A DNA stretch of 64,000 bases. Origin: Cyanidioschyzon merolae (lineage: Eukaryota). This document shows, piece by piece, positions 30,640 through 60,390 of the stretch; position 1 is the first letter of the stretch; the number at the start of each line of letters is the position of its first letter. Location: NCBI GenBank assembly GCA_000091205.1, contig AP006500.2. One strand, given 5' to 3'. The notes under the pieces were generated by a model, which was not told the origin of the DNA, searched no databases, and worked only from the letters and a program-made list of their open reading frames with translations. The translations under genes were made by a program, and so were the position numbers.

Positions 30640-32235
30640 TCACAGCGCTCGTTGAATATATCGCTTGGAACCGAGGCGACCTCGTTTCTCTCGCATTCGG
30701 CGGTTCGAAAACCACCAACAGATTTGCTTGCGAGTGAGTCCTGTACTGTTGACTAACTGCTCACGCTCTGCTGCTGATGGATAGATGCTGACGCATTCGT
30801 AATGCTGGATGAGGATAGCTTCAGCGTGTCGCGAGAGTTTGTGGCGCTCGCTACCAACCATGCCCGTCCCAGAGCCCGTGCTCAGCTGCTCCATCAGAAA
30901 CCCCTCACCGTAGCGAGCAAGTACCGTCCTGAAGAACGCACGAGCAGTACGCGATCTGGTTGGCGGGATCGTCAGCTGCTGCTGCTGCGCGAGATCCTTC
31001 TGATCAACAGATTCTGAGATCTGGGATGCTACGCTTGAGCGCTCATCATCCAAGCCGGGAGCTTCCCGCGGAGTGCACAGCTCCACAGCCGACGATGGAA
31101 GCGCTTTCGAAAGCGGCCGCCGGAGGATTCCTTGCTCCGGGTTGCGAGCATTGAATTCCGTTGCATGGATGCCCCCGAGATACCCCGTACGATTTGCAGC
31201 AGATGTGGCTCCAGCGGGTAGACGCTGTACCGCGGACCCATGGAAGCATGCATCCGTAGTGCCAAGCGCTCCCCGATAGACATCGCACACGTCTTCATAC
31301 CAGAACGATTCTCCGTCGTTGGCAGCGTCTCCGAAAGCTTCGACATGCCACGGCAACGGTATCCGTAAACCAAGCGCTGCTCCAGATGCTGCTACCGCGT
31401 TTCGATCGCTTCGGCGTGCAGCATCCGAGGAGTCGGCCGTCTCAACAAAGCGCTGTGTCGATGCACTGAGATGCTCCGTCACGACTGGCATCGAAGACGT
31501 AGAACAATGCCCAGGCGTGCCTGTCCCTGGATCGTTTTCATCGCGAGCACGCGAAACGGCATATGCTCGGCAAGCACGCTCGTGCATCTGGAGAAGACAC
31601 TGGCAGCAGGACTCGAACTTGAGTCGGAAACGAATCAGCTGTTGCAAGGCGGTAACGAGTTCAACCAGTGCACCGGAGACGTGCACAGACGCCAACGGGA
31701 CATGCTCGCTGCATTGCTGGAGTTGCTGGAGCAGTAAACAGGTGGCCTCTCGCGGCTCGCAAGTCGCCAAGGAAGCGAGCGCCCGTAGCATTCGACGAGG
31801 AAGCGTACCCCTGAGCAACCATTCCCGGAGGTTCTCGATGCTTGGCGTTGCCTCTGCGGCTGTTGTCCGATCGAACGACGGGACACTCAGGAGTCCACCG
31901 TTGCAAATAACGTGTTCGACGAGAGCCTCTAGTTTTTCCGCAGCTGCTTGTTGGACTCGCGCTTCACTTGACGCGGGGTGTCTGGAGTCGGCAGTCGAGT
32001 TCACTGCGCTCGGTATCGTGAGCCAGAGCAAGGCCGTCGACGCCGAGGCAGTGTCTGCCGTAGCCTGCGGGTACACGCGACACGTCGCTAGCTGCCAGAG
32101 CGTCTCTAGCCAGTTGCTCGTATCTGACGACTGTGAACGACACTGCATTTCACCGTGCCGACTAGGACGCTGGTTCCGGGTTGTCGCCCGAGAACTCAAG
32201 CGGCCACCTTGCAGAAAGTTTGGCGGAAAAGTCAT
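30640..32235 (-). CDS. TALE-class homeobox transcription factor (C-terminal atypical homeodomain)
   Basis: C-terminal LSRHAEAILIQHYECVSIYPSAAEREQLVNSTGLTRKQICWWFSNRRMREKRGR. Helix-3 WFxNRR consensus with a three-residue loop extension (IYP). ATG at 32235. The antisense ORF 31319..32449 is judged spurious. Confidence 0.65.
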   Translation of the reverse strand: MTFPPNFLQGGRLSSRATTRNQRPSRHGEMQCRSQSSDTSNWLETLWQLATCRVYPQATADTASASTALLWLTIPSAVNSTADSRHPASSEARVQQAAAEKLEALVEHVICNGGLLSVPSFDRTTAAEATPSIENLREWLLRGTLPRRMLRALASLATCEPREATCLLLQQLQQCSEHVPLASVHVSGALVELVTALQQLIRFRLKFESCCQCLLQMHERACRAYAVSRARDENDPGTGTPGHCSTSSMPVVTEHLSASTQRFVETADSSDAARRSDRNAVAASGAALGLRIPLPWHVEAFGDAANDGESFWYEDVCDVYRGALGTTDACFHGSAVQRLPAGATSAANRTGYLGGIHATEFNARNPEQGILRRPLSKALPSSAVELCTPREAPGLDDERSSVASQISESVDQKDLAQQQQLTIPPTRSRTARAFFRTVLARYGEGFLMEQLSTGSGTGMVGSERHKLSRHAEAILIQHYECVSIYPSAAEREQLVNSTGLTRKQICWWFSNRRMREKRGRLGSKRYIQRAL

Positions 32236-32979
32236 TTCCGAGTATTCGTACCTTGGGCCGCTTCCACACGCCTCGTTCAGGTTCTATCAAGTCTTTGGTG
32301 AGATCCTTCTCCTCTACATAGCGTTCGGGCTGTGCGGTTACGAGGTTCGGGGTCGGTCGGTTTTTCGGTTTTGTGTCGAACGCAGCGTTGCGTTGACCGG
32401 GGCGGGTCAGCGGTCGAACGCTTGCTTGACCAACCTGACGTATCGGTGAAGTTGCTCGCGAGTGCGCTCATGTATTTACCAACTTGCTTGCCTCTATTAT
32501 GACAAAATCATAACTTGCTTGCTTGCTTGCACGCTACTCGAGCGCAAACACTATGACAGCGTTTTCGCTGCCTCTACCGCGAACCGCCCCCGCGACTGGC
32601 AGTACGCTTTTGCGTCCACGAACGGACCCAGTCAGTCAGCGAACAAGAACTTCGCCTCGTCATATGCGGGTCTAGGTATCGTTTCGCTTCATGGACCAGC
32701 TGTTCGAGTAGGTCTTTCAGCGAGTCTGGTGCCCACGAGAATCGCCATCCAGATGAACCGCAACAACTGCGGTTCCAAAGTGCGCAGCACCCTCAGCATA
32801 CGCTGAAACCCAGGTACTGCCCGGGCATGGTGTACCTGATGCGGCTCACCAGTGTGTTTCCTGGACTCGGGAGCCCGTCGACGATGCCCACGCCTCCTCG
32901 CGAAAGCGTCAAAAGCGAAAGCGGACATGGACGAGCCGCAACGCCAACACTGTTTACAACGCGAATGCTCGCAGAGCTT

Positions 32980-33942
32980 CTATCGCCGGCCGTGCCATGA
33001 GCGTTTTCGAAAGTTGATAAACCAGTTAGATACTTGTTTCACAGACACACCAGTCTGGGCACTCAACTGAACCTTCACCGCGTCACTTGGGTACGGGTGA
33101 TCCCAGTGCGCTCTGGCCCAGGCTTCGAATACAGCAACGGCATGCTTCGGAAGCGGGGTTCTTCGGCGCGAGCTCGCCCGAGCAGGTTCTTGCGAGAGCG
33201 CTGCTCTCAGCGGAGTCGTTTGATCACCGGATATCGAACGATTCGCATAAGCGTCTCGTCTCAGTATATGTGTGGTCGGAGTCGGTCGTCCCGAGGCAGG
33301 GCACGCACATGTCGATGACGGGCATGCCGTGCTCCGATGCACTCCAGCGGCACGCGGAGATTCCCAGCAAGGAACGCCTTCGTGGAGCACACTGGTGCCC
33401 GCACAGATACGTAGGCGCTCGATCGGCAATGCCCTGGGCAGTGGTGTCGTTTCCGCAGTCCCGAGGCGCCCAGTCGAGCGTCCGTCGAAACCGTTGCGAC
33501 TGGGCTCGACCGCAGAGCTTGAAGCTGCGCCCGCCGAGAAGCATGGACGCAGTCGGCCGCGTTGAATGGAGACAACATCAGCCTCATGGGCGGAGTGTTT
33601 GCATTCGGTGAGGTTCTGGCCTGCAAGTGCCGACTCCCCAGCTTCGTAACAGATCACATCGCGCTGAAAGTCATCCGAGTTTGCTGACCCGGGCGCAGAG
33701 CACAATGCTCGCTCACCAAGAAACAGGAGCGCAGCCTCGACATGAGCGTCGCCGTCATCGTCGAATGCACCACCTGTTCCCGCGTGCTCGACATGGCTCG
33801 GCGCTTGCCAGTCACAGACCTCGCTTTCTCTGGACGAAAAACGCAGACCGGGCTGCGCTGGAGCAGATGTTACAGATCCTGCTACTTGATTCGAATCCCA
33901 TTTCCGCGGTATGTCTTCCGACTTTCTCGTCTTGTAGGTCAT
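32980..33942 (-). CDS. TALE-class homeobox transcription factor (KNOX/BELL-like)
   Basis: LPKHAVAVFEAWARAHWDHPYPSDAVKVQLSAQTGVSVKQVSNWFINFRKRSW. Classic TALE homeodomain with P-Y-P loop extension and WFINxR helix 3. Track start 34035 is GTG; first ATG is 33942. Confidence 0.75.
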   Translation of the reverse strand: MTYKTRKSEDIPRKWDSNQVAGSVTSAPAQPGLRFSSRESEVCDWQAPSHVEHAGTGGAFDDDGDAHVEAALLFLGERALCSAPGSANSDDFQRDVICYEAGESALAGQNLTECKHSAHEADVVSIQRGRLRPCFSAGAASSSAVEPSRNGFDGRSTGRLGTAETTPLPRALPIERLRICAGTSVLHEGVPCWESPRAAGVHRSTACPSSTCACPASGRPTPTTHILRRDAYANRSISGDQTTPLRAALSQEPARASSRRRTPLPKHAVAVFEAWARAHWDHPYPSDAVKVQLSAQTGVSVKQVSNWFINFRKRSWHGRR

Positions 33943-34454
33943 GAGGGTTTCGCTTGACCAGCGCTTGACGGCAGCAGTCAAGTTGACTACTGAGTTGACC
34001 ACTCCGTCTGCGGGTGAGCGCTGTCGACCATGCACTAACCACCACCATCATCATCATCATGATCATAATTGCTCTGGGATGACGTCGTTTTCATGATGAC
34101 CAGTTCACAACCCTTGCCCGAATCCCTTCTCCTGCTCGCAGCGGCTACCAGGGCATACCCCCAGCGGCATCCACACAGCCGCTGCAGCAGGCGCTCCAGC
34201 TGATCCGCGCGACCCGCGTACGGAGGGCGCCAAGCGCGCGTGCATGACGACCGTTCCGCGGGCCACGCTGACGGGCGCGATCGATGCGCCGCGGCGATCG
34301 GACGCGAACGCTATAGGCGAGTGGAATATTCATCCATAATTGTTCTATAATGTTCTAGTTTCTTGATTGGCGAATCACGCCCTGGAGCGCGGACGCTGCA
34401 CTGCGGATGATGCCGCTTGCCGCACCAGCGTGCGCTGCAGGCTCCTATCCGAGG

Positions 34455-57359: not shown

Positions 57360-58578
57360 CTACGCTGGAGGTCTCTTCTCCAGCACCGCACATCTCCGGA
57401 TATTGATTGCGGCGTTAAAGTCTCGGTTCACAAACTCCATCCGTTTCTTGCCATCGTTGGTTGTACTTACGAATGCGAGTAGCCCTCGAACTTTCGCCCT
57501 CCTTTCCATTTGCTCCTCCGTCAGCGGTCCGAACTTTTTTATATCCTCAGGGCTCCGCTGGCACTTTTCCATATCGACCCGCTGGAGTGTACACCTCAGC
57601 CCGTGGTGTGTATACGATGTTCGGAACTCATCTACAGGTATCGTAACGAAACGCCTTGCGCACTGCTTGTACGTTCTTGTCGTTGGAGCTGGCGTACACC
57701 CTTTTCGGGTCTTCCAGCGCCCTGCTCCGCGTGCTACTACGAGCCTCTGACTTTTATCCTCTTTGAAGGCGCTCATTGGAAAAATTCGCAGATGCACGCT
57801 GCCTCCCACCGTATAGATGAATACGTAGACGAGCCCAAAAGGGCTTTGTGTACTCTTTCCACAGCGCCTCACAATGAGCAACACGAATTTCCATGAATTT
57901 CAGAAACGCTTTAAAGTCCGCTCCGCGGCAAGTCACCTCGCTCAAAGCTTCCCGGTGATCCTTCATTCCATCGTTCTACGTCTCAATTTTCTTCCTTGCA
58001 TTCATGATTCCCGATTCTCGATAGTATCTCGCTCTCGAGAACCTCAACAGACGCACGTCTTTCTGACGCAAGTTGCCGTCGGTATCATCTCCCCCACGCT
58101 TGGGTACAGCGACGGTTATAATATTCGTGTTCCCGGGGTCCGCGCCACCGACAAAGCAATTCTCATGCACTTTCCGCGTCGCAGGACCCGCCTCCTTCTT
58201 TTTTTCATGCTTCGTCGCGCCAACCGTAAAGTCGTTAGCTTGCACTTTCTGTGTCGCAGGATCCTTCTCCTTCTCATCTTCATGCTTCGTCAGCGGCGGA
58301 ACTGGACGATCCACCTTCAACCGCCGATAGTGTACACACAGGGCTACTCCATCGGTTTCGATCAACCCAGTGAACAACTTTTGCTTGCTTATTTTGAGAC
58401 GTTTGAAAACGAAGATATTCTTCCAGTGCATCTCCCTGTTCTCACCTGTGAACTCTGCCCTCCTTACATCGAACTCGGGACTGATCTCCTTCATGATGCC
58501 ATGAAGGACTCTGGAGCCGGTAGTAACAAAATGTGACTTGATGGTGCACATTGGAACGACGTTGGAGCGCTTCCCCAT
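57360..58578 (-). pseudogene. TnpB/Fanzor-like nuclease core (RuvC-I through RuvC-III), interrupted by one frameshift/stop between 57884 and 57976
   Basis: Segment 58578-57976 starts with ATG (MGKRSNVVP...). If joined across the frameshift the two parts give ~400 aa, the TnpB/Fanzor2 size range. The catalytic triad residues D (GADPG), E (DEFRTS) and D (NRDFNAAINI) all appear intact. Confidence 0.55.
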
Positions 58579-59425
58579 TAGGGCCGCCTTCCGTCTCTCC
58601 CACTCTTCATTTTTTCGTCACTCAGCTTTATTTCCGCCTTGCGTTCTGGCGCTCGGTCCAGAAACGCGAAATAGCACAGAATGAGGCGATAGTATCTTTC
58701 ATTATCTTTTTTCAGCTCTGATATCTTTTCTCTTGAATTCGCCAGCCCCGAGACTGCACGGTGCTCTTGTATAACAGCACGGATTACAGAAGCTTCATTC
58801 GTGCTCCTGCGTGATTTCTTCTCGTCGACGAATTCGATCTAATCTTCATGCTTGCGATCGTTCGTGATACCGTTGATAATCGCCCATATTCCTTTGCGAG
58901 ACAGGCCCGGGTAAATTGCAAACACGGCGCATATCATAAAACGTTCGAGGTTCATCCTCAAATGCTTCTTCAGGTTCGTGAGGTACTTCATCGCCCCGTA
59001 TGTGTAAGTATCCCGGTCACCCCTGTATCGAGTACCCTCGAAGCGGAATTCCGCGAAGTTTTCGTGGAGGACGTGCACTAGCTCATTTTCCGTCCGCGTT
59101 TCCCCTGTGCCAAGCATCAGGTGACGAATAAAGGTCTTGTCGAAAACTCGTCCGGAATCTCGACTGTTTCCGTATGCGCCACGTCTTCGTACATCTCCCT
59201 CGCCATATGCATGACTCCTAAAGAAGCCTTTATAACACTCATGGGGTACGAATCGACACGGTTCCTGATAGCGTCTCGCAACTTTTCCTTGTAGGGATCC
59301 TTGATATGTTTACGAAGACAGGCGTTTACCACCATCTCGTCGTACTTTCGTCTTTCGTACAGCATGTAAAGTCGGGTCTCCTGCCTTAGCTTCTTCGTCT
59401 TCTCCTGCTCCACTTGGCTCGGCAC
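57360..59425 (-). mobile_element. TnpB/Fanzor-like (OMEGA-family RuvC nuclease) element, fragmented by frameshifts
   Basis: Four consecutive minus-strand ORFs in frames 1, 2, 0, 2: 59425-59117, 59117-58839 (TGATG stop/start overlap), 58578-57976, 57884-57360. Third segment: [16 protein letters not shown]...[17 protein letters not shown] (RuvC-I), then [17 protein letters not shown]. Fourth segment: VTIPVDEFRTSYTHHG (RuvC-II, DExxTS) with partial Zn-finger cysteines, then EFVNRDFNAAINIRRC (RuvC-III, RDxNAAxNI). The whole block is AT-richer than its surroundings. Confidence 0.65.
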
Positions 59426-59802
59426 TCTGTTTCGCTTTCTCTGGCAGCCGGCGAGGTTGTACCACCGGTATCATCCACTTGCTTCTCCATACGTTTCCAT
59501 TTTTGAAAAAGAACGCGCTTTGATCGCTTCTGCTATGTAGCGCGAAAAATCAATCGAATACACCCCCCCTGAGGATTGAAACACAATGGAACTGAGAAGC
59601 TATACTTGCGGCCACTTTCACACAAATACACCCTGTACGATAGAACAACACGCGAAAGATCAGAATCGCGTTTCCCTTCAACGGCGACATGCGCGTCATG
59701 TCTCGTGACTGCCGGATCTCCCGGGTGCGCGTATCGAGCGCACTATGTACCAACAAGAACATAGACTAACGATAAACTACCAACGATACAAAAATTCCTT
59801 TC

Positions 59803-60390
59803 CCCTCTACGATAAACGTTGAACGTGGGAAACCGCTTCCGTACTGTCGAAAGTTAGCCTTCTTGACGGAAGGTCCCGCGAGCCGGACGAGTCTGTCACG
59901 TTTGTGTTTCATGCTGCACTCAGTGGCAGGTACTTCAGTGGCAGGTACTTCAGTGAAATCTGAGCCACTCGTCCGCAACGCAGTTTCCTCTGAGACTAGG
60001 GGCAGTTAAGCTGTGTCTGGGCGTCGCCCATGTTGCAACTATCTCCGAGCATATCGCTTGGCGCTGCTGCAGGCAGTAGGGCTGTCTGCCCAGTTTTCAG
60101 GCTCCCAGAATGACAATTAGCTCTGATTCCGTGTCAGGTGTAGTATTCGTCGGGCCGACACCATCGGGAGTATGGCAAAGCCGTTCTGGCTACGTGCAGC
60201 ATCTGCTCCAGCGGTGTAGGCGCTGCAGCGGGTGCTCAGCGCAGGCACTCGGCACACGGTAGAACGTTCGAAACGATCAGTATACCCGAGATGAAGAGTA
60301 AGTAATGGAACTTGAAGGTAGGATGCATGATGATGGGCGCTTCCCCGAAAGCCATTATCTATGCCGCAATCTGAGATCCATGGTTCATGT
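59803..60390. repeat. dispersed repeat family, copy 2 (see copy 1 at 17890-18470), abutting the 5' side of the TnpB/Fanzor-like element
   Basis: See copy 1. Includes the local duplication cagtggcaggtacttcagtggcaggtacttcagtg. Confidence 0.6.

Follow-up and report, generated by a model that had tools for sequence, protein, structure and literature searches.

This study concerns a pair of adjacent homeobox genes, CMR153C and CMR152C, in a 64,000-nucleotide stretch of chromosome 18 of Cyanidioschyzon merolae 10D (hereafter the window), both of which lie on one record of 1,253,087 bp. An earlier note, made from the letters of the window, had described them as neighbouring minus-strand genes of a red-alga-like genome, each ending in a three-amino-acid-loop-extension (TALE) homeodomain, and had proposed either a co-regulated heterodimer module of KNOX/BELL type or an old tandem duplication. 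Open reading frames (ORFs) and translations confirm the arrangement, and the proteins match those of C. merolae 10D exactly, so that the note was right in its guess of a red-alga-like genome. The CMR152C translation is identical to BAM82405/XP_005538441, annotated as 'homeobox protein', and that of CMR153C to BAM82406/XP_005538442, which GenBank names 'similar to BEL1-related homeotic protein'. Locus tags were taken from Table S2 of Joo et al. 2018 (PMC6219170). The locus comprises the following features, with positions counted in the window:

30640-32235, minus strand: CMR152C coding sequence (531 aa plus stop; ORF), atypical homeodomain protein
30682-30849, minus strand: CMR152C homeodomain with a one-residue loop extension (ERHKLSRHAEAILIQHYECVSIYPS...WWFSNRRMREKR), from translation, Pfam, alignments and AlphaFold
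30850-30948, minus strand: pre-homeodomain motif of CMR152C (ARAFFRTVLARYGEGFLMEQLSTGSGTGMVGS), from translation; conserved
31531-31983, minus strand: conserved all-helical N-terminal domain of CMR152C (aa 85-235)
32212-32235, minus strand: N-terminal motif MTFPPNFL of CMR152C, an instance of MT[F/Y]P[K/R/P]
32236-32979, no strand assigned: intergenic spacer between CMR153C and CMR152C (744 bp), with an AT-rich patch and a GCAA-rich run near 32480-32545
32980-33942, minus strand: CMR153C coding sequence (320 aa plus stop; ORF), KNOX-Red1 TALE homeodomain transcription factor
32983-33168, minus strand: CMR153C homeodomain of the 63-aa TALE type (RRRTPLPKHAVAVFEAWARAHWDHPYPSD...NWFINFRKRSWHGRR), from translation, Pfam and alignments

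The mechanical ORF of CMR153C continues upstream of its ATG to a GTG at 34035. We place the start at the ATG at 33942 (MTYK...), which is backed by the orthologue N-termini MTYS, MTYN and MTFPKALL. The best explanation of the locus is two intronless, separately transcribed genes predicted to encode sequence-specific DNA-binding proteins.

Both proteins carry a C-terminal homeodomain with the strings quoted in the earlier note (HPYPS...NWFINFRKR in CMR153C, IYPS...WWFSNRRMR in CMR152C), and both exceed the gathering scores of the Pfam models Homeodomain and Homeobox_KN. They differ in the length of the loop between helices 1 and 2. From Leu8 to Trp48, 43 steps are counted in CMR153C, which is the TALE value, and 41 in CMR152C, compared with 40 in canonical homeodomains. 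CMR153C aligned without gaps to PKNOX1 (E 9e-15), MEIS, TGIF and PBX/Exd, its top solved-structure matches were all TALE domains, and it covered positions 1-40 of the 40 positions of Homeobox_KN at 62-67 bits. For CMR152C, Pfam Homeodomain aligned at positions 3-57 over 56 residues and Homeobox_KN at positions 10-40 only. Set against solved structures, CMR152C has one residue more than DUX4 HD2 and two fewer than Exd/PBX; against CMR153C, BLASTP and hhalign both gave a net difference of minus two residues in the helix 1-to-loop region. The AlphaFold model of CMR152C places the homeodomain helices at residues 469-481, 488-498 and 502-517 (predicted local distance difference test scores 84-90), with a helix 1-2 loop of six residues versus five in canonical and eight in TALE domains. 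A Foldseek search of the Protein Data Bank with the full model returned template modelling scores of up to 0.91 (Antp) and 0.88 (Exd). The one-residue extension, giving a 61-aa domain, is kept in 6/6 members of the CMR152C family described below. CMR153C has the three-residue loop and is a true TALE protein, whereas CMR152C lacks it and is structurally non-TALE, with only one extra loop residue. The claim of two three-residue-loop domains therefore stands for CMR153C and falls for CMR152C. Nor did either outcome that the earlier note had set against its own proposal (a damaged helix 3, or membership of both domains in one TALE subclass) occur exactly: helix 3 is intact in both proteins (W48, F49, N51, R53), and the domains do not form one subclass, one of them being non-TALE.

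Homeodomain positions 47, 50 and 54 determine specificity (PMC6219170). CMR153C carries the KNOX/MEIS-type combination N47/I50/K54, CMR152C has W47/S50/M54 and its Cyanidium relative Y47/G50/M54. Since these recognition positions differ from those of KNOX-Red1, CMR152C should read different DNA sites and most likely binds sequences unlike those bound by its neighbour.

CMR153C is a listed member of the KNOX-Red1 class (Joo et al. 2018) and orthologous to Galdieria partita KNOX-Red1; the class is related to Chlamydomonas GSM1 and plant KNOX. In keeping with this class, it has a 63-aa TALE domain with LPKHA in helix 1, while outside the homeodomain it is highly divergent, with 35% identity to Cyanidiococcus. 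Its KN-B region (EPSRNGFDGRST...) was assigned by Joo et al. from their own alignment (PMC6219170), and Pfam detected no KNOX1, KNOX2 or ELK domain in CMR153C. The published annotation of its ELK domain is inconsistent, Table S2 of Joo et al. listing KN-B/ELK and a footnote to Table S3 giving secondary ELK loss (PMC6219170).

By profile score, the CMR152C homeodomain is an intermediate, midway between the TALE and canonical models. Isolated homeodomains gave the following Pfam scores:

CMJ215C, non-TALE: Homeodomain 54.8 bits, Homeobox_KN 20.0 bits
CMT550C, non-TALE: Homeodomain 55.9 bits, Homeobox_KN 22.2 bits
CMH049C, TALE: Homeodomain 29.5 bits, Homeobox_KN 60.2 bits
CMR176C, TALE: Homeodomain 29.6 bits, Homeobox_KN 70.5 bits
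CMR153C, TALE: Homeodomain 30.7 bits, Homeobox_KN 66.6 bits
CMR152C, CMR152C family: Homeodomain 49.3 bits, Homeobox_KN 42.9 bits
Cyanidium relative, CMR152C family: Homeodomain 47.9 bits, Homeobox_KN 45.5 bits

The Homeobox_KN gathering score is passed by CMR152C and failed by the non-TALE CMJ215C and CMT550C. When a profile was built from the family homeodomains, red-algal TALE domains scored 25-42 bits despite the gap and C. merolae non-TALE domains 15-19 bits. Among the best single-domain matches outside the family in 1.84 billion proteins, 8/14 were 63-aa TALE domains. One such match with similar helices reads RRKLPRRAREILAEWFEKNIVSPYPSD...STGLSAKQIHHWFTNRRKRD and ends WFTNRRKRD. The closest outside homeodomains belong to an unnamed TALE group (P0080, P0107, P0172, P0103, P0134, P0151 and P0163) that carries the pattern RRKLPR.AREIL..WF......PYPSD.ER..L...TGL..KQIHHWFTNRRKRD.

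Single stretches of the domain recall both red-algal KNOX classes. Helix 1 of CMR152C, LSRHAEAIL (K-L-S-R-H-A-x-x-I-L in the family), resembles LPKHAVAVF of KNOX-Red1, and a STGLxRKQ stretch is common to both. The family helix 3, WF[G/S]NRRMR.K, resembles [Y/F/W]F[G/S]N[R/K]RMR.KR in Calliarthron and Galdieria sequences of KNOX-Red2, a class represented here by CMH049C, Galdieria EME32194 and Calliarthron g2262 and g10787. KNOX-Red2 further shares the helix 1 pattern KLS..A..IL and the N-terminal MT[F/Y]P[K/R/P] with the family. In contrast, KNOX-Red2 proteins keep the three-residue loop, KN-A/KN-B and a C-terminal KN-C2, none of which was detected in the CMR152C family, and separate KNOX-Red2 orthologues are present in the same genomes as family members. 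A PYPT string is retained in two of the relatives (P0044 and P0045).

The shared N-terminal motif is found at the start of the family proteins as MTFPPNFL (CMR152C), MTFPRAHL, MTYPKTYL, MTFPKLQL and MFPKAHL. Among KNOX-group proteins, Cyanidium KNOX-Red1 begins with MTFPKALL and Galdieria KNOX-Red2 with MTFPKYFYL or MTFPKYIYL. The motif is degenerate in C. merolae and Cyanidiococcus KNOX-Red2, which start with MYPP and MYPR, and CMR153C and its close orthologues start with MTYK, MTYS and MTYN. No start of this kind was seen in the PBX-Red or non-TALE proteins compared. When 131 kb were translated in six frames, MT[FY]P[KRP] was matched 6 times, and 5 of the matches coincide with starts of the genes named here.

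The family to which CMR152C belongs is small and evolves fast, and it was found only in Cyanidiophyceae other than Galdieria. A word-indexed search returned the C. merolae cluster, a Cyanidiococcus yangmingshanensis protein (37% identity), a metagenomic relative (34%) and nothing more. Searching 1.84 billion representatives exhaustively with a profile added Cyanidium caldarium KAK4536636 with its EukProt twin and two proteins from unassigned read-archive assemblies, below which scores were those of generic homeodomains. The six members (CMR152C and those labelled P0031, P0032, P0042, P0044 and P0045) thus come from Cyanidioschyzon, Cyanidiococcus, Cyanidium and two unassigned assemblies. The profile search found no member in Galdieria, although Galdieria proteomes were included; three homeobox genes, all TALE, have been counted there (Joo et al. 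2018, PMC6219170). When metagenomes were scanned for patterns of the family, C. merolae-like contigs alone were recovered.

All family proteins terminate directly after the homeodomain. In the motif preceding it, Y442, G443, L451, G458, M459 and G461 are invariant in 6/6 members. The Pfam models KNOX1, KNOX2, ELK, Meis_PKNOX_N, PBC and POX gave no match in the six members at E values up to 10. A reading of the pre-homeodomain motif as ELK-like ('VLARYGEGFLMEQL' compared with 'LLRKYSGYL' and 'FVAAMEQL') was rejected because a shuffle test was not significant: the ELK profile scored the motif at -2 to 2.5 bits, which shuffled sequences equalled in 9-94 of 200 trials. An apparent likeness between 'LIRFRLKFES' and 'VLRFHLLELEK' of MEIS-B was likewise not used, the Pfam scan and profiles containing KN-B having given nothing. 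Several relatives seem to have truncated or mis-started gene models. For P0045, an open frame begins with MTFPKLQL at L005:219 (219-1787) and encodes 522 aa, not 381 aa as modelled; P0032 (L001, upstream of 10001) has an in-frame MAFPRNYS upstream of the modelled start; and in Cyanidium P0042, MFPKAHL stands at residue 17 behind a doubtful 16-residue leader.

Around the pair, microsynteny is strong and extends over three genera of Cyanidiophyceae. In two Cyanidiococcus-type contigs and one of Cyanidium (L001, L002 and L003), genes for Fip1, a PCI-domain protein, Mn-SOD and TMF are followed by KNOX-Red1 and the family gene, and further downstream by cytochrome b5, L21e, S19e and an FGE-sulfatase. 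Gene order in the C. merolae window is the same but reversed. Wherever the upstream flank is known, KNOX-Red1 immediately precedes the family gene and shares its strand, with cytochrome b5 on the opposite one. Two short unassigned contigs (L004 and L005) also have a convergent cytochrome b5 gene downstream of the family gene; no KNOX homeodomain was found in their upstream flanks, which at 199 and 641 bp are too short to inform. Adjacency is also borne out by gene numbers in published supplementary tables, where the Cyanidiococcus orthologues are g551 and g552 and Cyanidium has one unlisted gene, g2408, in the slot expected for the family gene (PMC13353863). The collinear block spans at least 10 genes at 22746-46494 of the window and includes FGE-sulfatase, L21e, cytochrome b5, CMR152C, CMR153C, TMF-like, Mn-SOD, PCI-domain and Fip1 genes. 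Spacers between KNOX-Red1 and the family gene measure 744 bp in C. merolae, 652-731 bp in Cyanidiococcus and 278 bp in Cyanidium.

Throughout plants and algae, the passage from the haploid to the diploid phase is governed by KNOX and BELL homeodomain partners. In C. merolae, the TALE genes are CMR153C (KNOX-Red1, KN-B/ELK), CMH049C (KNOX-Red2) and CMR176C (PBX-Red, BELL-related) (PMC6219170), and Hirooka et al. 2022 equate BELL with CMR176C and KNOX1 with CMR153C (PMC9565259). Deleting the Galdieria partita KNOX1/BELL orthologues blocks self-diploidisation (PMC9565259). By orthology to these knockouts in Galdieria, CMR153C would have a corresponding life-cycle role in C. merolae. A tblastn search of the window with CMR176C yielded cross-matches to the two homeodomains only, and neither CMR176C itself nor a third homeobox. 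Because the BELL-related gene lies outside the window, the locus is not a KNOX/BELL module, and since the candidate C. merolae mating-type region is CMK076C-CMK078C on another chromosome (PMC13353863), neither is it the mating-type region. Expression of KNOX-Red1 is biased towards haploids in C. merolae, Cyanidiococcus and Galdieria. In Cyanidiococcus yangmingshanensis, expression of the KNOX-Red1 orthologue was about 2 in diploids and 45-90 in haploids (log2 fold change -4.76), that of the CMR152C orthologue about 9.7 and about 23 (-0.97), and that of the BELL-related gene 22-28 and 48-52 (-0.71) (PMC13353863). The neighbours have the same haploid lean but are not tightly co-regulated, which speaks against the co-regulation suggested by the earlier note. 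The heterodimer module it proposed is not supported either, given the position of CMR176C and the lack of a detectable PBL, KN-A or KN-B domain in CMR152C.

The literature is split over whether CMR152C is a TALE gene. Mukherjee et al. 2009 sorted six C. merolae genes into one KNOX, one BEL, two uncharacterised genes clustering with TALE and two others; by elimination, CMR152C appears to have been counted with the TALE-clustering genes. Joo et al. 2018 also list six homeobox genes, of which three are TALE (PMC6219170), and CMR152C, CMJ215C and CMT550C bear no TALE mark there (PMC6219170). A full-text literature search found no main-text mention of CMR152C. Annotations and catalogue entries already exist for both genes, and KNOX-Red1 has received ample discussion; the literature searched yielded no account of the family as such, its conserved one-residue loop, the intermediate profiles, the KNOX-group motif or the conserved tandem position.

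We consider it somewhat better than an even bet, judging from sequence comparison, that CMR152C arose when a KNOX-group gene was duplicated long ago and that its loop was later shortened. A KNOX-group TALE gene, most simply KNOX-Red1 in tandem, would have been duplicated after the split from Galdieria and before the Cyanidium/Cyanidioschyzon split. The CMR152C lineage would have dropped two of the three extra loop residues, replaced the DNA-contacting residues N47, I50 and K54 by W or Y, S or G, and M, respectively, and exchanged the KNOX dimerisation region for a different helical-bundle N-terminal domain, which probably mediates protein contacts. The old tandem duplication put forward by the earlier note is thus plausible, with some support from the TALE-leaning profile scores, the N-terminal motif and the adjacency to KNOX-Red1. 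A number of results weigh against such an origin. A loop-masked neighbour-joining tree (200 bootstraps) recovers the family as a clade (92.5%), but its nearest grouping is with non-TALE domains at 15% support, leaving it unplaced; the test is weakened because hmmalign had cut back helix 1 in many of the TALE sequences. The best solved-structure sequence matches of CMR152C are the non-TALE DUX4 domains (HD2), Foldseek matches canonical and TALE domains to the model equally well, and 116 full-length domain matches divide into 45 canonical, 41 TALE and 25 with one extra residue. Profile scores do not separate KNOX-Red1 from KNOX-Red2 as the source, and the motif shared with KNOX-group proteins is just 5 residues long. 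Outside the homeodomain, likeness is lacking. With the KNOX-Red1 alignment, hhalign aligned the homeodomain alone (probability 93%) and nothing beyond it; profile comparison with KNOX-Red2 and PBX-Red N-termini gave no homology outside the homeodomain, including no PBL match to PBX-Red (E 0.46); and the family N-terminus compared with those of KNOX-Red2 and KNOX-Red1 reached E 0.18 and 0.52, a weak negative given the thin alignments. Finally, the adjacency of KNOX-Red1 and the family gene is no better kept than the at least 10 genes around it, and this background synteny means that adjacency alone is no argument for a functional module.

Several of these points fit an alternative that we regard as serious, though clearly less probable than descent from a KNOX-group gene. 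On this view CMR152C belongs among ordinary non-TALE homeodomain genes and has one inserted residue; the residues it shares with TALE domains would be convergent or ancestral, and chance would have placed it beside KNOX-Red1. The weak placement in the tree, the single insertion relative to DUX4 HD2 and the occurrence of one-extra-residue domains elsewhere among the matches would then be expected, and general collinearity of at least 10 flanking genes in compact genomes would account for the adjacency. The absence of a TALE mark in Joo et al., the rank of Pfam Homeodomain as the top, end-to-end aligned model and the string NRRMR, typical of canonical domains, point the same way. Paired-like canonical homeodomains such as DUX4 HD2 indeed share with CMR152C a YP after the loop, S/Q50-N51-R52-R53 and a near-equal length. 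They differ in that CMR152C has one more loop residue, a KNOX/MEIS-like helix 1, a Homeobox_KN score above the gathering value, which the two true non-TALE domains do not attain, and the KNOX-group N-terminal motif. Further, the family profile gives red-algal TALE domains 10-25 bits more than C. merolae non-TALE domains, the N-terminal motif is common specifically to family and KNOX-group proteins, and the family occurs in one lineage only, always adjoining KNOX-Red1 where the context is known. We consider it doubtful that CMR152C partners KNOX-Red1 or the BELL-related protein, the tandem pair being a co-inherited heterodimer module of the haploid-diploid switch. Adjacency kept in three genera, higher expression of both Cyanidiococcus orthologues in haploids and the confidently modelled helical bundle, which may suit protein contacts, would agree with such a partnership. 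A TALE gene linked to a gene for a homeodomain of non-TALE length in a haploid-diploid sexual organism is also reminiscent of fungal mating loci with HD1/HD2 pairs (yeast alpha2/a1). Fungal pairs are usually divergent, situated at the mating-type locus and allelic between mating types; CMR153C and CMR152C are arranged in tandem and not divergently, and lie outside the mating-type region. The expression biases moreover stand about 14-fold apart, Galdieria performs its KNOX/BELL-dependent transition without a family member, and the pair shares its synteny with the genes around it. Very improbable, in our judgement, is physical linkage of KNOX-class and BELL-class TALE partners, as the YPS-motif homeodomains of both proteins, their matches to Homeobox_KN and the BEL1-related GenBank name of CMR153C might suggest. 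The gene identities refute this reading. CMR153C is KNOX-Red1 and not BELL, the PBX-Red gene CMR176C is absent from the window, and CMR152C has neither the three-residue loop nor a detected PBL-like domain.

Some further observations concern the spacer, the flanks and the rest of the window. At 32480-32545, a GCAA-rich run (gcaagcaagcaagcaag ... ggcaagcaag) flanks an AT-rich patch (ttatgattttgtcataatag); lying about 250-300 bp upstream of the CMR152C start, it could be a putative promoter element. A short ATG/GTG-rich run at 34040-34066 (atgatcatgatgatgatgatggtggtgg), about 100 bp upstream of the CMR153C start codon, gives rise to a spurious Met/Val-rich ORF at 33812-34066. On the plus strand, a 376-aa ORF at 31319-32449 runs antisense across the 5' half of CMR152C; we take it as a mechanical ORF whose sole support is its openness in GC-rich DNA. 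At 58001-60000 of the window, GC content falls to 0.499 (window mean about 0.565), and GC skew (-0.144) and AT skew (-0.126) are more negative there than anywhere else in the window.

In conclusion, the locus consists of KNOX-Red1 and a neighbour of another class, and naming it as such averts a false annotation as a linked KNOX/BELL pair in the Cyanidiophyceae, a recent genetic model for the KNOX/BELL-controlled transition. It seems improbable that a loop-reduced, KNOX-derived family acts as a third, lineage-specific component of the KNOX/BELL switch, linked to KNOX-Red1. The neighbour CMR152C is of modest interest of its own: its 61-aa homeodomain is a conserved intermediate, it bears KNOX-group marks, and its helical domain is uncharacterised. 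If TALE-derived, it would exemplify the loss of the loop that defines the superclass and, if this is true, a rare reversal of a character usually held to have been fixed since before the last eukaryotic common ancestor.

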